From: a virus
Lineage: Duplodnaviria; Heunggongvirae; Uroviricota; Caudoviricetes
DNA: 41,090 nt
Virus record (IMG/VR): IMGVR_UViG_2563366960_000010
Reading direction: 5' to 3' (one strand)
This document shows, in pieces, positions 3,369 to 41,090 of the stretch; within the stretch, counting starts at the first letter, position 1, and each line of letters starts with the position of its first letter. Made by a program: the position numbers and the translations under genes. Below the pieces are notes generated by a model. The model was not told where the DNA came from, did no database searches, and saw nothing but the letters and a program-made list of their open reading frames with translations.

Positions 3369-3395
3369 CCCGCAAAATATTGCGGGCTTTTTTTT
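3369..3395 (+). terminator. Plus-strand intrinsic terminator abutting the tailspike stop codon
   Basis: Stem CCCGCA / TGCGGG with 6-nt loop followed by T8 on the plus strand; on the minus strand the hairpin is not followed by a U-run. Confidence 0.5.
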
Positions 3396-6300
3396 AACGT
3401 TCTTCCAGAGACTGAATCCGCTCTTTTATCTTATCCATTTCTCTGCGCTGCCATGCTGCCTCGATATAGAATAAGAGATCAGGTCTGACCCCCCATCTAG
3501 ATCCTGCTGGCGTTATTTCAACGCGCTCAATGATGTCTTCCATTACCATCACTGGATTATCATCCTCATCAACAATGATGCTCCCGTCATTATCAGTCAG
3601 CGGCATTTCCCTTTGGCCAGTAATGACGTCATCATATACTGCGGGATAATCGTCATAGCAAAGAAAGGCATAGCGGCATGTTGTGCTTTCTTCTTCCATG
3701 AGTCCGTGAGAAATAAGAACATCACGAAGTTGCTGCGCGATTACACCATGATGTATCCTCGCCCCTTCTTCCCCCTTTATAGCGACAGCGTTCAGCCATT
3801 TATAAGCGATATACCTGACGTCACCCCAGGCATCCAGCAATGCTTCGTCAGGAGAGACCGGCTCTGTCTTTAATGTTCCGTCACTGGTAACCACAGGATT
3901 GGAGCCAAGATAAACTGTCGAGAACCTGTTTCCCGGACCACCAAGAGCATTTACATTATCAAGATAAGGTTTAACATCTCCGTTCTCAAAAAGATGTTCG
4001 AGTGCGTTATATACCGCGCGACGTGGAGTACTGCTTCCGGAACCATGCAACGTTATCATTGCACCATCTGCTGAAGACGTTGTTTCACCGCCGCTAACGA
4101 TTAATCTCTGAGCGGTAACATCATCAGACGGTACTTTCTTCGCAATAATGGCGTAATTACCCTCAAGTTTGACTTCCGCGCGAACTTGTCCTGATGTACC
4201 TGCATGGACAGTCAGTGACTGGACGGCAACATCATCTGTGAAATCAACGGGTACAGGAACCGTCCTCACGCCTGACGTCGACATAAAAGTAGGAAGCGTT
4301 CTGTTAGGAGTGGCTCCGTAGACAAAATCCCTTGAAACAAATTCTTCCTGTTTAATTTTCACCCTGAAACAATACAAATCAGCCGGGTGACCATCGTGAA
4401 CATAAGGATATTTTCTGTTGTTATCCCCTATGCTCCATGGGTTTAGAAAGTCTTCCCCACCGAAAATGTAGTACAGCCAGTTGTCTTTGATACAAACTGA
4501 ACCAACACCAACTGCAGAGTTAACTATTCCGCCCTGATAAATCTGATCAGTAACATTAACCCACTCTACATTATCCAGACTCCACTCATTGACGTTAACT
4601 CTGGTCATAAATGTTCTTGGATAATTTCCTGCATAACGGTTATCAGGTTCTCCTCCTTCCCACTCACCAAATGCGCGCTCACTGCCAAAAATAATCAGCT
4701 CATCGCCAACTTTGGCAAAAGGAAGGTTTGAGTGATGAACATTATTTGGGAAGCGAAGAGAATTCCATGATGTACCTAAATCAGAGCTTCTGTGCAATGA
4801 ACTACCGGGTTGAGTACTTAATGTCCCCCTGGTCGTCAGATACAGAATGCCATCATAATATTTTACACATGGCTCAGATGCATTCGCCTCATATTCTGCA
4901 GGTATGCGTCTGCGAACAAAGCTACCAGGAGAACCGAAAGCATCAGAGAAATAGAGTATCCCAAGCTCGCGTGGACCAATATCACCATTATGGTAGCCAA
5001 CAGCAAAACTGTTATCGCTAATCGTCGCAAAACTGTGAATCTCAGTAACAGGAGTGCTTCCGTCAACAAAAGAAGGAATAGTTCCAAGACTGGTTTTTCT
5101 CCATGGTGACGAGTGAAATGATGTACCAAAACTCCAGTATCTACCCTCGTTATTCTGATCCACATCCTGGGTATTTTGCGTCGTAACTGTAAAAGTATTT
5201 TTATCAATAACAGTAGTCACCGTCATATTCCCGGTAACACCTGTAACACCAGAGTTTGAGAAGTTGACAAAATCACCAGCAAATAATCCGTGATCAGTAA
5301 TGCGAATATAAGCGACTTGCTGATTTGCTGCTTTCGTTATACCACCATAAGCGCGAAGGCTGCGACTCATTGGGCGATCCCACAACTCTGCAACCTGCAG
5401 TTTATTTCCGCTCACGGTCCGCGTCTCAATTACAGCAAAAAGGCGATTTCTGACAACCCCCATACTCATGCAGTGATAGTTAACTGTGGGATAGTTTTCA
5501 TGTAAATCTGTAAGCCATTCCGGCGTTGTCCAGGTCTTCCCGTCATCTCCTGAGCGAACCCATGCAACATGGAGGTTATTTACACCATGGCGGTCTCCAG
5601 CCATAAAAGGCGCATAGATGACATTGTCATATACAAACGTTTTATCCTGCGTCCAGGCGTTGTACCACGGTGTATCTGTAATTTTAAATAACTCTCCCTG
5701 GATAAAATCTTCAGAAGCATAAAAAAGAGGCTGGCCCGGTATTCTCTCAAATAAAAAACGAGCATTTTTAAATCGACTGACATCCGGAAGAGTTGATACT
5801 TTAAAAGTAAGCCCTAATCCGTCAATTTTATAACCTGGAGATGAGGCTTCAAGGCACGCGCTTATTGCAGTGGAATCGTCATTTATACCATCACCAACAG
5901 CTCCAAAATCTTTGGGGCTAATAGCATCACGCATTTTATCCTGGAACGTTCGGTACACAGCCCCAGAACCATACTGAATAAACCAACCAAAACCACCAAC
6001 AACCCCGGCGATTGCAGCATCGACATAATTACGCATTGAGCGATTATTTACAGCGTCCTGCTCAAATGATGGATCTGCAAGGTTAGAAATTTTGTTTTGC
6101 TTTGCATCGTAATATTTTGCAAGCAAAGATGGTTTCATCAATGCACGTCTGAACCACCCAAAACATTGCTGGATCAGCATCGTCAGGTAGTCAAAGGCAT
6201 CTTCATGCACTTCGGGGAAAAATTTTCCCTGATTGCGAAGGTCTGTCTCCTGCACTACATCAAGCACACGATCTATCGTAATTCGCCATCCAGTAGCAAG

Positions 6301-6513
6301 CGGAGACGGAAGAACCACAGAACCGCCACTATAAGTGCCCGCCCCAGTTACCGTATAACCGGTATCCAGAACCAATTCTGTTACGTTTCCGTTCAGGTCA
6401 GACACCTGAACAACCAGGTCTGATTTTCTGAAAATTCGAAAAGTATACGGAAACGATGTCGTAACGCCGTTACCGGTGTATTCGTTGTGGTCAACTTCGG
6501 TTGAGACCGTCAT
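3394..6513 (-). CDS. Tailspike: endosialidase with T7 gp17-like N-terminal adaptor and C-terminal intramolecular chaperone domain
   Basis: 1039 aa. N-terminus resembles T7 tail-fibre adaptor; sialidase-type FERIP motif; two Asp-boxes (SGDDGKTW, SSDLGTSW); C-terminus resembles the self-cleaving chaperone domain of K1F-type endosialidases. Confidence 0.8.
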   Translation of the reverse strand: MTVSTEVDHNEYTGNGVTTSFPYTFRIFRKSDLVVQVSDLNGNVTELVLDTGYTVTGAGTYSGGSVVLPSPLATGWRITIDRVLDVVQETDLRNQGKFFPEVHEDAFDYLTMLIQQCFGWFRRALMKPSLLAKYYDAKQNKISNLADPSFEQDAVNNRSMRNYVDAAIAGVVGGFGWFIQYGSGAVYRTFQDKMRDAISPKDFGAVGDGINDDSTAISACLEASSPGYKIDGLGLTFKVSTLPDVSRFKNARFLFERIPGQPLFYASEDFIQGELFKITDTPWYNAWTQDKTFVYDNVIYAPFMAGDRHGVNNLHVAWVRSGDDGKTWTTPEWLTDLHENYPTVNYHCMSMGVVRNRLFAVIETRTVSGNKLQVAELWDRPMSRSLRAYGGITKAANQQVAYIRITDHGLFAGDFVNFSNSGVTGVTGNMTVTTVIDKNTFTVTTQNTQDVDQNNEGRYWSFGTSFHSSPWRKTSLGTIPSFVDGSTPVTEIHSFATISDNSFAVGYHNGDIGPRELGILYFSDAFGSPGSFVRRRIPAEYEANASEPCVKYYDGILYLTTRGTLSTQPGSSLHRSSDLGTSWNSLRFPNNVHHSNLPFAKVGDELIIFGSERAFGEWEGGEPDNRYAGNYPRTFMTRVNVNEWSLDNVEWVNVTDQIYQGGIVNSAVGVGSVCIKDNWLYYIFGGEDFLNPWSIGDNNRKYPYVHDGHPADLYCFRVKIKQEEFVSRDFVYGATPNRTLPTFMSTSGVRTVPVPVDFTDDVAVQSLTVHAGTSGQVRAEVKLEGNYAIIAKKVPSDDVTAQRLIVSGGETTSSADGAMITLHGSGSSTPRRAVYNALEHLFENGDVKPYLDNVNALGGPGNRFSTVYLGSNPVVTSDGTLKTEPVSPDEALLDAWGDVRYIAYKWLNAVAIKGEEGARIHHGVIAQQLRDVLISHGLMEEESTTCRYAFLCYDDYPAVYDDVITGQREMPLTDNDGSIIVDEDDNPVMVMEDIIERVEITPAGSRWGVRPDLLFYIEAAWQRREMDKIKERIQSLEER

Positions 6514-6988: not shown

Positions 6989-7717
6989 CTATCGTTTCGC
7001 TTTGTGCTCGTCCCAGCACGTTTTGCACCATGCCATTAAGCCGTCCGCATTTTGATTATTAGGGTAAAAGCTGGTCCGTTTTCTGCGGACATTACAAATT
7101 GGGCACCACTTCATATGGCGTGTATTCTTTGGGCCATCGAGACACCTTGCACACCACTTAGTCAATCCATCTGGATTTTTTGACGATTTCCGGAATTTGT
7201 CATATGGAAGGTTTATTCTGCATCGCAAACACTGCTTGCGGCCACTTGAAACTCTGTTAGCTGATTCTTCTTTTGGCGGCGATACAGAAGGTATTCTTGC
7301 TGGCTCTGATACTGCCTGAGGTGCTTTTTTAGATGACTGAGACGATATGTCATCACCAGGGAATCTTCCATGATATGCCGGACGCATTGATACTCCAGGT
7401 GGAAGCTCAGCTGTAAACGGCTTTGGCTGAATCAGTTGCCTCTCTTTTGCTAACTCCTGCTGTTTACAATATGTCTGGATTACCGCACTATCATAAGCAG
7501 GAGGTGCGGAAATATTAGGCGCATTACCTCCAGTTTTTTGAAACTGAGTAGAGGTGTGTTCTATCACCTGTGTACGATTAATCGTTATCTCCCCATCTTC
7601 GGTCTTTATCGTTTTGTTATGATTAACGACCGTACGATCAGAGATCTTAGTCTTGTTCTGGTTGATAACGTAAATAATCACCGCAACCACACCAACAACT
7701 ATCCAGAAAACTTCCAT
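6989..7717 (-). CDS. Membrane-anchored protein with tandem CxxC zinc-ribbon repeats; candidate superinfection-exclusion factor
   Basis: 242 aa; N-terminal TM helix, Pro/Ser-rich linker, C-terminal twofold repeat C-x2-C ... DGL..WC-x2-C; SD GAGGA upstream; operator palindrome just upstream. Confidence 0.55.
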   Translation of the reverse strand: MEVFWIVVGVVAVIIYVINQNKTKISDRTVVNHNKTIKTEDGEITINRTQVIEHTSTQFQKTGGNAPNISAPPAYDSAVIQTYCKQQELAKERQLIQPKPFTAELPPGVSMRPAYHGRFPGDDISSQSSKKAPQAVSEPARIPSVSPPKEESANRVSSGRKQCLRCRINLPYDKFRKSSKNPDGLTKWCARCLDGPKNTRHMKWCPICNVRRKRTSFYPNNQNADGLMAWCKTCWDEHKAKR

Positions 7718-9830: not shown

Positions 9831-9842
9831 GTGACATGTCAC
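9831..9842. repeat. GTGACATGTCAC palindrome copy 1 (14-mer CGTGACATGTCACA on minus strand)
   Basis: Perfect 12-bp palindrome between convergent genes; same core at 27027 and 29292. Confidence 0.6.
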
Positions 9843-23795: not shown

Positions 23796-24088
23796 TCCTG
23801 TTCACTGGCCTCTTTGGCCATCTTCAAATACTGTTCAGGGCAATGCGCCATAACGCGCTGAAACAGTTCCAGCGCCAGATTGCGTTGCCCCTCATTAAAT
23901 GCCATTGCCATAGCATCCATCGGAGAGATAGCGGAAAACACCCGGCCTTTCTCCAGCACCGACCAGACAACGCGACGCCCCTGTTCACTGCTCATGACAA
24001 AGCGAATGTCATCAATTTCACGCTGTGCCATGTCACGTTGCTTACGGGCGTTTTCTTCTTTCAGTTGATCGTCTTCGAAATCTGTCAT
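23792..24088 (-). CDS. Small acidic head-assembly-associated protein
   Basis: 98-aa ORF overlapping portal stop and scaffold start. Confidence 0.4.
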   Translation of the reverse strand: MTDFEDDQLKEENARKQRDMAQREIDDIRFVMSSEQGRRVVWSVLEKGRVFSAISPMDAMAMAFNEGQRNLALELFQRVMAHCPEQYLKMAKEASEQE

Positions 24089-26412: not shown

Positions 26413-26489
26413 GTGGCATTAGCTCAGTTGGACAGAGCAACCGCCTTCTAAGCGGTTGGTCGCAGGTTCGAATCCTGCATGCCACGCCA
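26413..26489 (+). tRNA. tRNA-Arg (anticodon UCU), phage-encoded, argU-like
   Basis: 77-nt cloverleaf folded by hand: acceptor GTGGCAT/ATGCCAC, T-arm GCAGG-TTCGAAT-CCTGC, anticodon loop CTTCTAA, discriminator G, encoded CCA; core resembles E. coli argU but stems differ. Confidence 0.85.
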
Positions 26490-27026: not shown

Positions 27027-27038
27027 GTGACATGTCAC
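27027..27038. repeat. GTGACATGTCAC palindrome copy 2 (14-mer CGTGACATGTCACA)
   Basis: Perfect copy 5 nt after the stop of the 110-aa gene, between convergent genes. Confidence 0.6.
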
Positions 27039-29291: not shown

Positions 29292-29303
29292 GTGACATGT
29301 CAC
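29292..29303. repeat. GTGACATGTCAC palindrome copy 3 (14-mer CGTGACATGTCACA)
   Basis: Perfect copy overlapping the stop codon of the 115-aa gene, upstream of terS. Confidence 0.6.
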
Positions 29304-30533: not shown

Positions 30534-31025
30534 TCACTCTCCTTTGATGCGAATGCCAGTGGTACTCATTCTCCTGATTTCCCAGAGCACACGAGGAACA
30601 CCACCGTTTCCGACCGGATCGCGTTTACTCCGCAGGGCGACGCTTGATTCCGCCCAGCTTTTTCTTGGAGGAAGCTCTTTCACACGAACAAAACCAGCTG
30701 CGCGAAGAGATGCTCCTGATTCATCTGCCCGGGTGTACGTAATACAACGTTGATAACCCATAGCTTTTGCTGCCCGCCAGACAGCACCATAAAGCGCGCT
30801 GTTAGCGTTGCGTTCTCCTGTGGTACATGTGCGATTTACTTCAAGCGTTAATCCATCGTCCAAATGTCGTGCAACAGGTCTACCGGCTGTCGCCACACCT
30901 ATCAATTCTCCGGCATCATTTCTCAGACCAATGCTGAATTTATGCCCCACCGGGGGTTTATTGTGTCGGTGATGTCTTGATATAAACGCCTTCGCAACAC
31001 GAAGAGTAACCGGTGAAATTTGCAC
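30534..31025 (-). CDS. Hypothetical protein (nin-region)
   Basis: About 163 aa from GTG 31025 with SD AAGGAGAG (track ORF extends to 31064); contains HRH..PPVGH; family not recognised. Confidence 0.45.
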   Translation of the reverse strand: MQISPVTLRVAKAFISRHHRHNKPPVGHKFSIGLRNDAGELIGVATAGRPVARHLDDGLTLEVNRTCTTGERNANSALYGAVWRAAKAMGYQRCITYTRADESGASLRAAGFVRVKELPPRKSWAESSVALRSKRDPVGNGGVPRVLWEIRRMSTTGIRIKGE

Positions 31026-31027
31026 TC

Positions 31028-31744
31028 TCACTCTCCTTTGATGCCAATGTTTACAGCCTGGCAAGCCTCTTTGAGCACCCAGTCAACAGCGTCTTTCCAT
31101 GCTCCGGTTTCGACTGGCGGGTTCTCACGTTTTACCTGCTCATAAAAACGCACCGCTTTAATCAGTCCTTCCGGTACTACTGGCGATGGCTGTTTAGCTT
31201 CTAAATCAGCAATTCTGTCAACCACGGCATCTACAGCATCTGAAAAGCCGAACAAGTTGCTCCACTCCGGCCTATCCCCGGTTGCTGCAAAATACATATC
31301 AGCTAAAGCAGACTCAGCATGATCACGCTCGCTGATGAGTTGCTCTTCGCTTTTCTCCAGTTCAGCAATACGCTTACTTCCATCCGAGATAACACCTTCG
31401 TAATATTCACGCTGCTCGTTGAGTTTTGATTTTGTCTCCTCAAGTTCAGCAACCAGTTTTCGAAGCCCTTCAATCTCACCATTGCGAGCAATGAGGTCGC
31501 GGCACATGCTTTCGTTCTCATCCAGCAGTGCAAGCACGGTAGCCGGATTAGCCTTGGCAACAAAATCCCGGACTGGCTTACAATCAATCTCCGCAATGGG
31601 TTGATACGATGTGTAGCCATGCTGTCTTGTATAACTACCGTGACGAATAACGAAAAAATCACCATTTATTTTTTTAGCCTGCCACTTATCTTCACCGGCT
31701 TTCTCTGCCGCTTCACGCAGTGCATGATAGTTAATTTTGTTCAC
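31028..31744 (-). CDS. Ead/Ea22-like protein
   Basis: 238 aa; N-terminus MNKINYHALREAAEKAGEDKW resembles Ead/Ea22-like prophage proteins; central coiled coil. Confidence 0.55.
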   Translation of the reverse strand: MNKINYHALREAAEKAGEDKWQAKKINGDFFVIRHGSYTRQHGYTSYQPIAEIDCKPVRDFVAKANPATVLALLDENESMCRDLIARNGEIEGLRKLVAELEETKSKLNEQREYYEGVISDGSKRIAELEKSEEQLISERDHAESALADMYFAATGDRPEWSNLFGFSDAVDAVVDRIADLEAKQPSPVVPEGLIKAVRFYEQVKRENPPVETGAWKDAVDWVLKEACQAVNIGIKGE

Positions 31745-35174: not shown

Positions 35175-35759
35175 ATGAAAAGTATCCAGGACGTCCGCAG
35201 GCAAAATCTCAACGACTTGATCGACCGTGAATTCAATGGTGTTCAGACGCGGATGGCAGAAAAACTTGGAACTCAGGCAAATCTGGTAAACCGCTGGGCT
35301 CTTGGCAAGAAGGTTATCGGCGACCAGGTTGCACGAAAAATTGAAGCTGCCGCCAATAAACCCCGTAACTGGCTTGATATTGATCGTTCGCTTTCTCAGG
35401 AGGGTTTTCAGCCTGTCGGCCCGAGCGATATAGGTCAGCTGGCGGCTCACAACCTGGAACGCTGGATGAGCGAAAGCCGCGACCTTTCAACACAGGGAAA
35501 ACTTCACCGCGCATCCGGCGTCGCCCAGGTGACAATCAGCCGCCTGTTAAACAATGAGGTCAGCGTTTCCATTTCCACCCTGGAGAATGTTGCATCCGCA
35601 TTCGGGCGTCACGGATATGAACTACTGATTCACCCGCACGACCCTGCGACTATCAACTATGACCGCTCACGCTACGCATTGTTACCCGAAACCGAGAAAG
35701 CAAAGATCGAAAGTTACATTGAATTTGTCATCAACCAGAACGAAAAAAGCAAACAATAA
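35175..35759 (+). CDS. Prophage repressor candidate with tandem XRE-type HTH domains and no S24 peptidase domain
   Basis: 194 aa; two HTH-like segments; no Ser-Lys autocleavage domain recognisable; divergent from the cro-like gene. Confidence 0.6.
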   Translation: MKSIQDVRRQNLNDLIDREFNGVQTRMAEKLGTQANLVNRWALGKKVIGDQVARKIEAAANKPRNWLDIDRSLSQEGFQPVGPSDIGQLAAHNLERWMSESRDLSTQGKLHRASGVAQVTISRLLNNEVSVSISTLENVASAFGRHGYELLIHPHDPATINYDRSRYALLPETEKAKIESYIEFVINQNEKSKQ

Positions 35760-35780
35760 AACTATAGTTTTCAGTAAGTA

Positions 35781-35805
35781 AGCCGCCTCATGGCGGCTTT
35801 TTTAT
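35781..35805 (+). terminator. Intrinsic terminator after the repressor gene
   Basis: Stem AGCCGCC / GGCGGCT followed by TTTTTTATT. Confidence 0.65.
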
Positions 35806-35816
35806 TGCCAGATAGA

Positions 35817-35831
35817 TTACCTTACGGGTAA
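35817..35831. promoter_or_regulatory. Operator-like palindrome TTACCTTACGGGTAA (one mismatch) at the early-left promoter
   Basis: Lies just upstream of TTGACA (35851-35856); GGTAAC half-site repeats at 35888-35907 follow. Confidence 0.5.
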
Positions 35832-35912
35832 TTTTTTTAACTCATATCTATTGACACCAAACCAAATAAGCATAATTATTACCCCAACGGTAACAGACCG
35901 AGGTAACAAGTT

Positions 35913-36067: not shown

Positions 36068-36367
36068 ATGAACGTTAATCAGCAGAAAAATCTTCAAAAA
36101 ATCATGCTGGCATTCGACAAGGACTACCGCCTGTCAGAACAGCTATATGACCGACAAGTTGAACTGATTGAGAGCATCCGACTTCATCAACTGTCCTCAA
36201 CTTTCGACGTTGTAACAGGCAAAGGCGTTCGTCAGGAAGTGCTGGAGGCTGCTAAAGACAGCCCTGAGTTCGAAGAACTGATGGATGCCTACCGGCGCGA
36301 GGCAATGGCAATTATAGCGCGCTGGGATCTGGCGGATCAGCTTGATGGGCAGAGGGACGCGGCATGA
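36068..36367 (+). CDS. Hypothetical early protein (99 aa) preceding the recombination genes
   Basis: ATG 36068 with SD GGGAGGG; stop overlaps the exonuclease start (ATGA). Confidence 0.45.
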   Translation: MNVNQQKNLQKIMLAFDKDYRLSEQLYDRQVELIESIRLHQLSSTFDVVTGKGVRQEVLEAAKDSPEFEELMDAYRREAMAIIARWDLADQLDGQRDAA

Positions 36368-37263
36368 TGCGGAACGCTGGAATCATGGATAGAACAAAAT
36401 ACATCGGAGGAAGCGATGTTGCAGGGATTCTTGGAATTAGCCCATGGCGCACCCCGCTTGAGGTTTATCTGGATAAGGTCCAGCCACGTGTCAAACCAGT
36501 AGACCCAAGCAAGCAGAAAGTTTTCACGCGTGGCCAGCGTATGGAGCCATACGTAATAGACCTGCTTTCTGAGGAAACAGGGATGGAAATCGTTCATCGC
36601 GGAAACCGCTATATCCACCGTGATTACGATTTTATTGCAGCTGAGATCGATGCAGAAGCAGCGTCAGGCGAGAACATTGAGATCAAAACAGTTAGTCCGT
36701 TCAAAGCCAAAGAATGGGGAGAAATCCAGACAGATGCAATTCCTGTGCATTACACGGCCCAGGCCATGCACGGGTTGATGGTTACAAACAAACAGGTATG
36801 CGTTTTCGGTGTGCTTATCGGTGGCGACGACTTCCGAATCTATCGGGTTGAGCGTGATGAAGAAACTATCCAGGCGATCTTAGAAAAAGAAATCGCTTTC
36901 TGGGACCGAGTGAAAAATCTTAACCCGCCGGAAGCTACCAGCGTAAGCGATGTATCGCTGATGTTTGAGAAAGATGCCGGGACAAGTATCGAGGCTGACG
37001 GAAAGGCACTCGCACTATTCAACGATCTACGAGACATGAAATCACGCAGAAAATCACTGGAAGAAGAAATAGCTATATCAGAAGAGAAGCTGAAGATGTA
37101 CATGCAAGAGCACTCAGTCCTGACCCTGGACGGAAAGCCGCTCTGCACATGGAAATCTCAGATCAGCAACAGATTCGACCAGAAGCTATTCCAGTCAGTA
37201 CACCCTGAGTTATTCGAAAAATTCAAAACAACAACGACACAACGCGTCTTCAGAATGAAGTAA
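36364..37263 (+). CDS. YqaJ-like viral recombinase exonuclease (lambda Exo-type)
   Basis: 299 aa; N-terminal DRTKYIGGSDVAGILGISPWRTPLEVYLDK matches the YqaJ pattern; directly upstream of recT. Confidence 0.8.
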   Translation: MMRNAGIMDRTKYIGGSDVAGILGISPWRTPLEVYLDKVQPRVKPVDPSKQKVFTRGQRMEPYVIDLLSEETGMEIVHRGNRYIHRDYDFIAAEIDAEAASGENIEIKTVSPFKAKEWGEIQTDAIPVHYTAQAMHGLMVTNKQVCVFGVLIGGDDFRIYRVERDEETIQAILEKEIAFWDRVKNLNPPEATSVSDVSLMFEKDAGTSIEADGKALALFNDLRDMKSRRKSLEEEIAISEEKLKMYMQEHSVLTLDGKPLCTWKSQISNRFDQKLFQSVHPELFEKFKTTTTQRVFRMK

Positions 37264-37272
37264 GGAGAAAAA

Positions 37273-38295
37273 ATGTCTATCAATGCACTTAAGGCAGCGG
37301 CTACCGGTAACCAAGTTGCACATCATAATGAGAAACCAACAACTCTGGCCGGACTTCTGGCAGACCCAAAAATTAAAGCTCAGATGGCTTTGGCACTTCC
37401 AAAGCACATGACAGCAGACCGTCTGGCGCGCATAGCAACCACAGAGATCAGAAAGGTTCCAAAACTTGCATCATGCGACCAAGCCAGCTTCCTGGGGGCA
37501 ATTATGCAATGTGCCCAATTGGGTCTTGAACCAGGCGGAGCTCTTGGACACGCTTACCTGATACCGTTCGACAAACGCCAGAAAGTAAATGGAAGATGGG
37601 AAACCGTATCTACAGAAGCACAGCTGATTATCGGCTATCGCGGAATGATTGACCTTGCCCGCCGCTCTGGGCAGATCCTGAGTATCTCGGCTCGTACCGT
37701 ACATACAAACGACAAATTCAGCTACTCATACGGCCTGGAAGAAACGCTCGAGCATTTACCTTGCGAAACAGGTGACCGCGGAGAATTAACGCACGTTTAC
37801 GCCGTTGCACGACTGAAAGATGGCGGAGTCCAATTTGAAGTTATGAGCCGGGCAGACGTTGAGAAAGTTCGTGCACTGAGCAAAGCCGGTAGCAGTGGCC
37901 CATGGGTTGATCACTTCGATGAGATGGCTAAAAAAACAGTAATTCGCCGACTGTTCAAATATCTTCCTGTTTCTATTGAAATGCAGAAGGCTGTTGTTAT
38001 GGATGAGCGCGCTGAAGCTGGACTTAGCCAAGATAACGCAGCTGTTATCACTGGTGAATATTCCGTAGTTGACGATGAGCGTCAACACCTGTCGCCAATT
38101 TCAGATTCAGAACGAGAAGAAGCTCGAGAATATATCATCGCGATACTTAATAGCCTGGATCCATCTGCTGAAGATGCAAAAACGATGTTCAAGCGCGCTG
38201 AAAATGAAATTAACACCATGGCTGAAAAGCTCGGTGATGAATATCACCAAAAATTCATGATGACGCTTAACGATATGCGTCCAGAATTCGAGTAA
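37273..38295 (+). CDS. recT: RecT-family single-strand annealing protein
   Basis: 340 aa with extended identity to Rac RecT as recalled (LGLEPG.ALGHAYL.PF, LIIGYRGMIDLARRSGQI, THVYAVARLKDGG.QFEVM, GPWV.H..EMAKKT.IRRLFKYLPVSIE). Confidence 0.9.
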   Translation: MSINALKAAATGNQVAHHNEKPTTLAGLLADPKIKAQMALALPKHMTADRLARIATTEIRKVPKLASCDQASFLGAIMQCAQLGLEPGGALGHAYLIPFDKRQKVNGRWETVSTEAQLIIGYRGMIDLARRSGQILSISARTVHTNDKFSYSYGLEETLEHLPCETGDRGELTHVYAVARLKDGGVQFEVMSRADVEKVRALSKAGSSGPWVDHFDEMAKKTVIRRLFKYLPVSIEMQKAVVMDERAEAGLSQDNAAVITGEYSVVDDERQHLSPISDSEREEAREYIIAILNSLDPSAEDAKTMFKRAENEINTMAEKLGDEYHQKFMMTLNDMRPEFE

Positions 38296-38344
38296 CCACC
38301 ACCGCGGCGCCACGTGCGCCGCACTGCAACCAAGAGAGGTATTC

Positions 38345-38593
38345 ATGAAAGGTGCATTAGGTAAGAAAGAACTCCTGGCGGTGGTGCCACTGTCATGGAG
38401 CACTATCGACCGTATGGAGCGCGCAGGGGAATTTCCTAAACGCTGGTATATCACCGATAAACGCTGCGCATGGAACCGTGATGAAGTTGAGCGTTGGCTT
38501 GATGAACGTCAGGCAGCAAGCCCGGCAGAGTTCCAGGGTAAAAAGCCTCCTGTTCAGCAACGTGTATATCGTCCCGTGAGCAACGCTGCATGA
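38345..38593 (+). CDS. AlpA-family phage transcriptional regulator / excisionase-like
   Basis: 82 aa with the AlpA-type pattern (LSWSTIDRMERAGEFPKRWYITDKRCAWNRDEVERWL). Confidence 0.65.
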   Translation: MKGALGKKELLAVVPLSWSTIDRMERAGEFPKRWYITDKRCAWNRDEVERWLDERQAASPAEFQGKKPPVQQRVYRPVSNAA

Positions 38594-38702
38594 GTGCGCT
38601 GCTAAGGCACTGGAGCAAATGGTCAGGATGGTACTTATTCCTGGCCTCTGTTTCAGCATGGCTTTATCTGCTGGCATTAATTTTCAGAGAGGGTTGGATT
38701 AA

Positions 38703-39002
38703 GTGAGAAAGTTAAGCCGACTTGAAAAATATCACATGAATAAGGTTTCAATGCGCAGTCCGTCAAAGATTGTCGCCGTTACTCCTGCGGCGATAGAGAT
38801 CGAAAAACGCGCGATTGAAAGAGAGAAAAAAGGGCAATTCCGCATTGCCGCTCACCTTTGGCTTCAGTGTATGGATGTTGCTTCTGGTGATGTTGAACGT
38901 GCAAGGATCGCGGTTCGCAGGGACCAATGTATCACAAAAGGTAACGGCCTTCGCCGTGGCGACTATAGCGGCATAGGATGTTGTGGGGTGGTTTATGACT
39001 AA
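38703..39002 (+). CDS. PerC/ANR-like small regulator (tentative)
   Basis: 99 aa, GTG start; central AAHLWLQC...RIAVRRDQC resembles the PerC pattern as recalled. Confidence 0.4.
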   Translation: MRKLSRLEKYHMNKVSMRSPSKIVAVTPAAIEIEKRAIEREKKGQFRIAAHLWLQCMDVASGDVERARIAVRRDQCITKGNGLRRGDYSGIGCCGVVYD

Positions 39003-39645
39003 GAAATACACACTAATCTATGCAGATCCACCCTGGGTATACCGGGACAAAGCCGCAGATGGTAATCGCGGTGCCGGTTTTAAATATCCGGTTATGAGTG
39101 TGCTGGATATCTGCCGCCTTCCTGTGTGGGATTTGGCCGATGAAAACTGTCTGTTGGCCATGTGGTGGGTGCCAACACAACCACTCGAAGCACTAAAAGT
39201 TGTTGAAGCCTGGGGATTCCGTCTGATGACGATGAAGGGCTTCACGTGGATAAAATGTGGTAGTCGACAACCAGATAAACTGGTTATGGGTATGGGACAC
39301 ATGACTCGCGCCAATAGTGAAGATTGCCTGTTTGCGGTAAAGGGAAAACTACCTACGCGCATTAATGCAGGGATCGTTCAGTCATTTACCGCACCGCGGC
39401 TTGAGCATTCAAGAAAGCCAGATATCGTTCGTGAAAAACTTGTGCAATTATTAGGCGATATTTCTCGCATTGAACTGTTCGCCCGCCAGACGTCTCATGG
39501 CTTTGATGTTTGGGGTAATCAGTGCGAAGACCCGGCAGTGCAACTACACCCTGGATACGCGTTGGATATTGGCGGATTAACAAATGCATTCAGCAATGCT
39601 CCGCTGTCACCAACAGACATCCAGGGGCGGGAGCGTGCTGCATGA
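38995..39645 (+). CDS. Orphan DNA N6-adenine methyltransferase, MT-A70 family
   Basis: About 216 aa from ATG 38995; catalytic DPPW in LIYADPPWVY; no adjacent restriction gene. Confidence 0.8.
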   Translation: MTKKYTLIYADPPWVYRDKAADGNRGAGFKYPVMSVLDICRLPVWDLADENCLLAMWWVPTQPLEALKVVEAWGFRLMTMKGFTWIKCGSRQPDKLVMGMGHMTRANSEDCLFAVKGKLPTRINAGIVQSFTAPRLEHSRKPDIVREKLVQLLGDISRIELFARQTSHGFDVWGNQCEDPAVQLHPGYALDIGGLTNAFSNAPLSPTDIQGRERAA

Positions 39646-39836
39646 ACAGGGCATCACCAGCAGATTTAAGAAAATGCCTTGAAACTGCAAACATGCTTGC
39701 ACACAGCGGGATCAGGTTTGTTCCAATTCCCGCTGTCACTGATGCTGAATTTGCAACACTGTCAGCAATATTCGAAAACAAAATTGAATCACTGGCAGCA
39801 GAAGCAGAGATGGAAGAAAATCAGCAGAACTATTAA
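39642..39836 (+). CDS. Small hypothetical protein adjacent to integrase
   Basis: 64 aa from an ATG overlapping the methyltransferase stop (ATGA); the track ORF's upstream extension overlaps the methyltransferase and is unlikely. Confidence 0.4.
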   Translation: MNRASPADLRKCLETANMLAHSGIRFVPIPAVTDAEFATLSAIFENKIESLAAEAEMEENQQNY

Positions 39837-39839
39837 ACG

Positions 39840-41090
39840 TTATTCCCCCGCCATCCACTTCTCAAACTTCGACGGGGAGAACGGAATCAGATCCGTATGC
39901 TCCCCGTCAATCCATGAATCAATCATATCGGCCCACTGCTGCAACATGTAGGCGCGCTGTCTGGCGTATTCCGCTTTGTTATATACGGCGCGCACACCTT
40001 TCTGCTCATGTGCCAGAGCCTTTTCAATCCAGTCTGAAGGATAACCAGCCTCATGCAACAACGTACTGGCTGTACGGCGCATATCATGTACAGTGAAGTC
40101 CTGAATATGCTCACCATCTTCATTTATTATTTTCACCGTTCTGTCGATCAGAGAGTTCAGCGCGGCATTAGATAATGGCTTCCGGAAATTGTAACGACCA
40201 GGAACCAGATATTCACTTCCACCAGCGCACATCTGCAACCCGACCAATATATCCTGTGCCTGTTTAGGCAGGTAAATAACGTGCGCCCGGCTTCCCTTCA
40301 TGCGGTCTGGAGGAATTGTCCATGTCCATTTTTTAAAATCTATTTCATCCCACGTTGCATTGGTGAATTCGCCCTTACGAACCATAGTGATAAGCACCAG
40401 TTTTAAAGCCATTTTCATAGTGCCCATAGCACCAATGGCATCCAGCGTGCGGAAGAACAGGCCAATTTCTTCTGGTGCCAGTGTTCGCTCTCGTGGTTTA
40501 AATATGGCGATAGACGAAGGTTTAATGTCAGCCGCAGGATTAAACAAACCATGACCACGGTCATTGGCGTGACGGTATACGCTACTGATGATCTCCCTGG
40601 CCTGCACTGCTGTTGCCCGGCCACCGCGTTCGACAATCCGGTCACACAAATCACGAACCATCGATGTGGTAATTTCAGCCATCATTTTATTGCCAAGAAC
40701 CGGAAGTATGTCACGGTCGATCACCGCCTGTTTCATTGCGCGGGTACTGTCAGCCAGGATGACGTGTTTCATATAACTGTCGGTATGTACCGCAAACGTC
40801 TCGGCACCACGAATCTTTTTGATACCGTCACGTTTAGCCGCAGCCGGTGACTGGCCTGCTTTAAGCAGCTTCTTTGCAGCAATCAGTTCTTCTCGCGCTT
40901 CTGCCAGGCTGATACCGTCACGCCCATACTGCCCGATTACCAGTGTTTCGCGGCGACCGTTGATACGGTAGTCATAGCGAAACGAGACCGTGCCTGACGT
41001 AAGCACAGCTACATACAGCCCGTCACGATCGGAGACCTTGTACAGTTTGTCCTGCGGCTTGAGGTTTTTTAATTTTGTATCGGTAAGCAC
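39840..41090 (-). CDS. int: Tyrosine integrase, P4-type; 5' end probably truncated by the window edge
   Basis: 416 aa in window; arm-binding N-terminus LTDTKLKNLKP..LY.V.DRDGLYV and C-terminal catalytic region HDMRRTASTLLHEAGY; first in-window codon is GTG at the last base, so the true start is likely beyond 41090. Confidence 0.85.
   Translation of the reverse strand: MLTDTKLKNLKPQDKLYKVSDRDGLYVAVLTSGTVSFRYDYRINGRRETLVIGQYGRDGISLAEAREELIAAKKLLKAGQSPAAAKRDGIKKIRGAETFAVHTDSYMKHVILADSTRAMKQAVIDRDILPVLGNKMMAEITTSMVRDLCDRIVERGGRATAVQAREIISSVYRHANDRGHGLFNPAADIKPSSIAIFKPRERTLAPEEIGLFFRTLDAIGAMGTMKMALKLVLITMVRKGEFTNATWDEIDFKKWTWTIPPDRMKGSRAHVIYLPKQAQDILVGLQMCAGGSEYLVPGRYNFRKPLSNAALNSLIDRTVKIINEDGEHIQDFTVHDMRRTASTLLHEAGYPSDWIEKALAHEQKGVRAVYNKAEYARQRAYMLQQWADMIDSWIDGEHTDLIPFSPSKFEKWMAGE

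Follow-up and report, generated by a model that had tools for sequence, protein, structure and literature searches.

The locus described here raises the question of what is modified by an adenine methyltransferase that a temperate phage carries without a restriction partner. The window, that is the whole stretch of 41,090 nucleotides which was analyzed, holds a phiV10/epsilon15-like podophage (genus Uetakevirus) integrated in Escherichia coli at a site adjoining guaA. The host genes yfgH and yfgI occupy bases 1-1071, and the remainder is collinear with phiV10, phiv142-3 and annotated relatives. Strain 20Y000092 carries a near-identical prophage between guaA and yfgI.

The methyltransferase gene is already known and carries an ordinary annotation, since it was found in 538 of 5426 complete E. 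coli genomes (roughly one in ten), in 537 of them as a full-length match at 95-100% identity; in these genomes the RefSeq label is MT-A70 family methyltransferase. Across 38300-41090 the DNA identity to phiV10 and to a further 16 deposited phages is 96.9-99.6%; their records name the gene putative adenine methylase or MT-A70. The gene itself shares 98% DNA identity with phiV10 p33 ("putative adenine methylase"). The literature searched contained no experiment on the phiV10-type protein, and papers on the phiV10-like phages phiv142-3 and ZX5 do not mention the methylase.

With respect to the prophage as a whole, the tailspike gene (3394-6513, - strand) encodes a full endosialidase domain set (End_beta_propel 1e-233, among others), so that the prophage should target the K1 polysialic-acid capsule and not O-antigen; phiV10 has an oac gene, whereas the corresponding place in the window has none. 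A tRNA-Arg gene (anticodon TCT; 26413-26489, + strand) lies within the prophage and overlaps a 90-aa ORF on the opposite strand.

The methyltransferase and its operon

The N-terminus of the protein reads MTKKYTLIYADPPW. The ATG at 38995 was taken as the start because homologues begin at the same place (MTKKY or MxKKY in the alignment), and a GTG at 38983 was unsupported as an alternative. The DPPW motif occupies residues 11-14 (D11-P12-P13-W14; nt 39025-39036). In the Pfam scan MT-A70 (PF05063) was the sole match and spanned the complete profile (positions 1-172 of 172; E 3e-22; 79.8 bits, with a cut-off of 23.9 bits). PHROG 359 'DNA methyltransferase' (1e-119) and the PADLOC type II methyltransferase model MTase_II (3.6e-77) also matched, and no NCBIfam model is specific for this protein. 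The motifs follow the permuted order, with motif IV N-terminal and the SAM-binding motifs near the C-terminus, and the HSRKP loop (aa 138-142) and ELFAR...WGNQ (aa 160-176) align with SAM-binding and catalytic segments of ciliate MTA1. Among 74 homologues, down to 36% identity, residues Y31, W85, K87, G101, K141 and E160 are invariant, and D11, P12 and W14 are at least 90% conserved. The MT-A70 family comprises 12,064 clusters (50% identity, E <= 0.001).

An AlphaFold2 model computed from the 74-sequence alignment had a pLDDT of 88.1, above 90 for the core (residues 1-180) and near 50 for the tail (185-216); an earlier model from a shallow 32-sequence alignment was discarded (pLDDT 63.8). Foldseek matched this model to the MTA1 and METTL3 catalytic subunits (8xyx_A, 2.8e-14; 5k7w_A, 3.1e-14; TM 0.64-0.69). 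The protein consists of a catalytic core (aa 1-180) followed by a variable, poorly modelled tail, and no separate target-recognition domain was found in its ~180 structured residues. The open reading frame, the motif, the full-profile Pfam match and the fold all agree with the earlier note, which had described an MT-A70 adenine methyltransferase with a DPPW motif, and judged by its sequence and predicted fold the enzyme looks catalytically competent. A Dam-type GATC methyltransferase (Pfam MethyltransfD12/Dam, DPPY) was considered and rejected, as the protein matches MT-A70 only and has DPPW.

Table 1. Coordinates of the methyltransferase gene, its operon and the repeated palindromes in the window
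Feature	Position	Strand	Basis or remark
HTH repressor (phiV10 p40 equivalent)	35175..35759	+	sequence matches
Strong terminator of repressor gene	35780-35799		
Operator-like palindromes TTACC-N5-GGTAA bracketing candidate promoter	35817-35831 and 35879-35893		
Candidate early-left promoter, TTGACA-17-AATTAT	35851-35879	+	sequence pattern
YqaJ/RecE-like exonuclease	36364-37263	+	Pfam, PHROG
RecT annealing protein	37273-38295	+	Pfam, PHROG
AlpA/excisionase-like regulator	38345..38593	+	Pfam, PHROG
38-aa hydrophobic/small membrane ORF (phiV10 p35 equivalent)	38590..38706	+	phiV10 annotation
PerC-family small protein, 83 aa	38751..39002	+	Pfam PerC 6e-07, PHROG 868 5.7e-62
MT-A70 adenine-N6 methyltransferase, 216 aa	38995..39645	+	motifs, Pfam, PHROG, PADLOC, predicted fold
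DUF1382 protein, 64 aa	39642..39836	+	Pfam DUF1382 1.8e-30
P4-type tyrosine integrase	39840..41090	-	convergent with operon; start codon is the window end
TTACC-N5-GGTAA, start positions of all copies	6618, 7738, 7831, 8898, 26076, 29199, 32756, 32818, 35105, 35817, 35879		15 bp each
GTGACATGTCAC, exact copies	9831-9842, 27027-27038, 29292-29303		12 bp
GTGACATGTCAC, near copy	24025-24036		one mismatch

The position of the gene is presented in Table 1. It had been placed in the early operon next to the integrase, and it does occupy the far end of the early-left operon, on the integrase side; gene and integrase are not adjacent, however, as the DUF1382 gene intervenes and the integrase is encoded on the opposite strand, ending 3 bp past DUF1382. 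Genes in this part of the operon overlap, by 4 bp between AlpA and the small ORF, by 8 bp between the PerC stop and the methyltransferase start, and by 4 bp (ATGA) between the methyltransferase stop and the DUF1382 start. No terminator-like site was seen on the + strand from the candidate promoter to 39836, and small ORFs also sit downstream of this promoter on the same strand. From this layout the methyltransferase would be transcribed from the repressor-controlled early-left promoter, and the enzyme would mainly be made after infection or induction. The exonuclease (299 aa) and RecT (340 aa) are separate genes here, and the phiV10 record shows a single RecE-RecT fusion.

Among the 80 closest viral contigs, 78 have PerC upstream of the methyltransferase, in most cases overlapping it as in the window. 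DUF1382 was found downstream in only 48 and is thus dispensable. The start of the PerC-like protein at ATG 38751 is supported by a PerC-methyltransferase fusion protein, P0003; the longest ORF opens at GTG 38703. Such fusion ORFs occur in two public assemblies and arise from small deletions (junction at window positions 38990-39000). In P0003 one T has been lost within the 8-bp overlap and in P0001 the deletion is in frame; these may be real variants or assembly errors.

Orphan status and candidate target sites

That the window holds no partner restriction gene, as had been claimed, was confirmed. Scans of the accessory and early ORFs of at least 90 aa with Pfam, PHROGs and/or PADLOC identified no restriction-modification (R-M) endonuclease, the functions recovered being recombination, replication, regulatory, antirepressor, Mom-like, Ead/Ea22, DUF and tailspike, and the rest of the window is collinear with phiV10-like phages. 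Membership of a type II R-M system was rejected because the window has no restriction endonuclease gene linked to the methyltransferase. No recurrent endonuclease was observed beside relatives in 70 loci with callable neighbours, drawn from 80 species genomes; the neighbours were phage genes (NinB, NinG, RusA, Q, replication) or conjugative-element genes (CD1107-like, TrbL, topoisomerase). In certain epsilon15/phiV10-like prophages PerC and the methyltransferase flank a larger gene, which overlaps the start of the latter (locus L090, 4937-6004). One upstream neighbour in this survey had a Pfam DndB match, and in Salmonella phage SPC32N (KC911857) a gene annotated 'DNA-sulfur modification protein' lies beside the methyltransferase.

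The prophage may carry a second DNA-modification gene, to judge from a 176-aa protein (30534-31064, - strand) that matched PHROG 1384 'Mom-like DNA modification protein' at 9.6e-42; its Pfam Mom match (1.2e-4) was below the cut-off, and at the same position the near-identical prophage has an 'XF1762 family protein'. A 242-aa protein (6989-7717, - strand) matched PHROG 6762 and gave no PADLOC match, and its C-terminal zinc-ribbon partly matches Lar-like restriction-alleviation and endonuclease VII families.

The roles proposed in the earlier note, protecting phage DNA from restriction or modulating gene expression, are generic ones which the enzyme may have. The note had also suggested that the target might include the 12-bp palindrome GTGACATGTCAC or operator palindromes. 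Both motifs are real. The former occurs in three exact copies where 0.13 would be expected, located in intergenic DNA at the ends of late (structural, terminase) operons, and is possibly a late-gene regulatory or terminator-associated site. TTACC-N5-GGTAA occurs in 11 exact copies (none expected by shuffling) in promoter regions, and from its sequence and placement this set looks like a repressor-operator regulon. Two of the copies flank the early-left promoter, and further ones are found close to the antirepressor/accessory region and to the replication operon. The motifs are far from the gene, however, and nothing ties them to the enzyme, so that this suggestion was not borne out. Recognition of 12-15 bp is moreover unlikely for a protein of ~180 structured residues with no target-recognition domain.

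The usage of GATC was likewise uninformative and was set aside as a clue to the target. The window contains 163 GATC sites that could serve as substrate (observed/expected 0.77), which is unremarkable among 4-mer palindromes, and the phage shows no enrichment or clustering of GATC. As phiV10 has a terminase annotated as PacB-like, the TGATCA/G hexamers were examined for a cluster resembling that of P1 pac, and there was none.

Substrate of the enzyme

The target site had been given as unknown, which is out of date in view of two substrate assignments published for an 83%-identical relative from Stx phages, as far as the cited table and article set them out. The gp5 product of Stx phage phiPA8, an MT-A70 protein with DPPW, was examined by Gong, Chakraborty and Koudelka (NAR 2023, PMC10810198) under the name M.EcoPA8orf6770P. 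Spontaneous induction and virulence were lowered by an IS629 insertion in the gene (phage phiPA2), a defect complemented by the wild-type gene but not by a DPPW-to-APPA mutant (PMC10810198). The purified protein alone had near-background activity on dam- DNA and was nearly inactive on DNA or RNA (PMC10810198). Together with PNB-2, which the upstream gene gp6 encodes, it formed a 1:1 complex which preferred 16S rRNA and 30S subunits, the preference of this holoenzyme for 16S rRNA over DNA being more than 13-fold (PMC10810198). The enzyme bound to PNB-2 was reported to raise spontaneous prophage induction, and the C-terminal ~27 residues of the enzyme were proposed as the PNB-2 binding site (PMC10810198).

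The same authors call their protein "highly similar" to M.EcoGV (PMC10810198), which is entered as a GATC DNA methylase in vivo (PMC6602927 Table 3; PMC10810198), a result that according to PMC10810198 was obtained without PNB-2. The O104:H4 Stx2 phage P13374 has two methylases only, the MT-A70 gene and one paired with a restriction endonuclease gene; M.EcoGV must therefore be the MT-A70 protein. On the record in these sources the substrate of the Stx-phage relative, GATC DNA or 16S rRNA, is disputed.

Over residues 1-187 the window protein is identical to M.EcoPA8orf6770P at 155 of 187 positions (83%). The 32 differences include GMGHMTR in the window and GMGSTTR in the Stx protein, in the loop after strand TW(I/N)K, and for this reason the specificity may differ from that of the Stx-phage enzyme. 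Beyond residue 187 the two tails (the last 21-29 residues) are unrelated, and the C-terminal segment proposed to bind PNB-2 in the Stx orthologue group is absent from the window protein. With respect to PNB-2 itself, no homologue was found in the window (tblastn, E <= 1), and the PerC-like protein has no similarity to it.

Given the homology to M.EcoGV, as entered in the cited table, and the absence of PNB-2, the orphan enzyme most likely methylates adenine in GATC or in a similarly short DNA motif, a reading by analogy to which we give about an even chance of being correct. The analysis establishes the family, the intact motifs, the fold, the operon layout, the lack of a restriction gene and the kinship with the studied enzymes, and what we infer beyond these concerns expression timing, oligomeric state, substrate and biological role. 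The phiV10-like temperate phage carries a restriction-free MT-A70 adenine-N6 methyltransferase as the penultimate gene of a compact early-left operon with translational coupling, in the order exonuclease, RecT, AlpA-like, small membrane ORF, PerC-like, methyltransferase, DUF1382. The enzyme is essentially a bare catalytic core of ~180 residues with a poorly modelled tail. As it lacks a target-recognition domain, and as its closest structural matches, MTA1 and METTL3, function in hetero-oligomers, it probably acts as a homo-oligomer such as a homodimer, or together with a small partner. Its substrate would be the GATC adenine in replicating phage DNA, where the methylation would supplement that by host Dam and might affect prophage induction. 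The main evidence against GATC in DNA is the in vitro inactivity of the Stx-phage enzyme on dam- DNA together with its preference for rRNA, and a GATC methylase also looks redundant in a Dam+ host; the lack of GATC enrichment or clustering in the phage likewise counts against it.

The strongest alternative, which we nevertheless regard as unlikely, is that the protein is the catalytic subunit of a two-subunit 16S rRNA methyltransferase acting on the 30S subunit and tuning spontaneous prophage induction, with PNB-2 replaced by another adaptor. The substitute would most plausibly be the translationally coupled PerC-like protein, docking on the divergent C-terminal tail. The 83%-identical core is shared with an enzyme that has reported rRNA activity (PMC10810198), the closest folds, METTL3 and MTA1, are obligate hetero-oligomers, and the poorly modelled tail differs exactly at the PNB-2 site proposed by Gong et al. 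In both the window phage and phiPA8 a small upstream gene overlaps the methyltransferase start. Across species the gene immediately upstream was PerC-like more often than of any other family (6 of 70 loci; PNB-2 was upstream in two loci of this survey), and PerC-like genes stand there even before MT-A70 genes only 43-46% identical; the fused PerC-methyltransferase ORFs described above also favour a partnership.

Several observations nevertheless count against an rRNA substrate. PNB-2 is absent from the window and PerC does not resemble it, and in several phiV10-like prophages a gap of 150-900 bp or another gene intervenes between PerC and the methyltransferase. Moreover, Stx phage P27 encodes a methyltransferase identical to that of phiPA8 behind a different, 67-aa gene whose product shares only its last 21 residues with PNB-2. 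Searches of the window with PNB-1 and with this 67-aa protein gave weak or insignificant matches, located outside the methyltransferase operon. The rRNA claim itself rests on a colorimetric assay of SAM use, with no modified base mapped (PMC10810198). The reverse cloning primer of Gong et al. 2023 maps to 1634-1655 of phiPA8 (KP682374; region 1634-2268), and the co-expression constructs of PNB-2 and methyltransferase therefore also carry two further genes, DUF1382 and DUF1627/TrmB-like, neither of which is discussed as a possible component in PMC10810198.

A low-specificity anti-restriction methyltransferase, acting on adenine in a very short or nearly any context and shielding phage DNA, is improbable. 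M.EcoGII and Hia5 carry out low-specificity adenine methylation which shields DNA from many restriction systems, and eukaryotic MT-A70 relatives read only 2-5 nt. This short recognition would be in keeping with such an enzyme, as would the lack of a target-recognition domain in only ~180 structured residues and the wide distribution of the family, which occurs without linked endonucleases in prophages and conjugative elements from many phyla. The closest characterized relative is recorded, however, at least in its table entry, with a defined 4-bp motif, and a Mom-like modification gene is already present in the same phage. Hia5/Hin1523 were rejected as MT-A70 members, as they belong to a different, Dam-related family with DPPY (PMC3299994), and M.EcoGIX, a plasmid-borne, single-strand-specific enzyme, was rejected as a relative. 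Finally, that the gene is an inactive or vestigial passenger, functionless in the prophage, is very improbable: prophage methyltransferases are often silent in lysogens (PMC4659465) and IS629-disrupted copies occur in Stx phages (PMC10810198), but the frame is intact, all the family-invariant residues are kept, 95-100% identity is maintained over 537 genomes with full-length matches, and the gene is translationally coupled to its neighbours. Our ranking thus places GATC or a short DNA motif first, the 16S rRNA holoenzyme second, the low-specificity enzyme third and the inactive passenger last.

Across the relatives the conserved part is a mobile core, and the variable parts are the tail and the upstream small gene. 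One could speculate, and we consider it doubtful, that enterobacterial prophage MT-A70 cores are modular subunits whose substrate is set by a swappable upstream small protein docking on a swappable tail, PerC being the adaptor in phiV10-like phages. If true, this would tie the PerC family, known only as virulence-gene activators, to nucleic-acid methylation and, in K1 and other pathogenic E. coli, to the regulation of prophage induction or of host genes.

The value of the window variant is that of a natural control, with the core kept (83%) but without PNB-2 and the matching tail. It bears on the activity of the bare core and on the choice of substrate by PNB-2, PerC-like and other upstream proteins, and could help decide whether prophage MT-A70 enzymes act on DNA or on rRNA. 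At stake, as the cited sources present it, is GATC DNA methylation versus a PNB-2-dependent 16S rRNA methylation that raises Shiga-toxin phage induction.

Comparison with known systems

The closest counterpart is phiV10 p33 (PhiV10p33, YP_512288, 'putative adenine methylase / DNA methyltransferase'), which is the same gene. Other Uetakevirus copies are those of phiv142-3, vB_EcoP_ZX5, O157 typing phages 9 and 10, and TL-2011b. These differ from the window gene by point differences only and share the order AlpA, PerC, methyltransferase, DUF1382, integrase, although some Uetakevirus relatives have a Ser/Thr phosphatase gene in place of DUF1382.

In phiPA8 and the Stx2 phages (Sepvirinae) the gene is, as in the window, integrase-proximal, followed by DUF1382 (51% identical between phiPA8 and the window) and preceded by a small gene overlapping its start. 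In contrast, PNB-2 (143 aa, putative winged HTH) stands upstream in phiPA8 and a PerC-like gene in the window, and the phage backbones differ.

The MT-A70 phage family is the bacterial sister group of METTL3 and MTA1. Tetrahymena MTA1 and human METTL3 have the same permuted class-beta fold, DPPW and SAM-binding residues as the window protein, with phmmer values of 6e-13 and 1e-5, respectively, at an identity of only 20-26%. Their substrates are DNA (6mA at ApT) for MTA1 and mRNA (m6A) for METTL3. Both need non-catalytic partners (MTA9/p1/p2 and METTL14) and carry extra domains, whereas the window encodes no such paralogue.

Hia5/Hin1523 are, like the window gene's class, prophage-encoded restriction-free adenine methyltransferases, and are silent in lysogens. 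T4 Dam, P1 Dmt and VT2-Sa Dam are phage-borne, restriction-free N6-adenine methyltransferases with GATC specificity. They belong to other families than the window protein (MethyltransfD12/Dam, DPPY, alpha class), but by analogy these Dam-type phage orphans are probably its functional counterparts.
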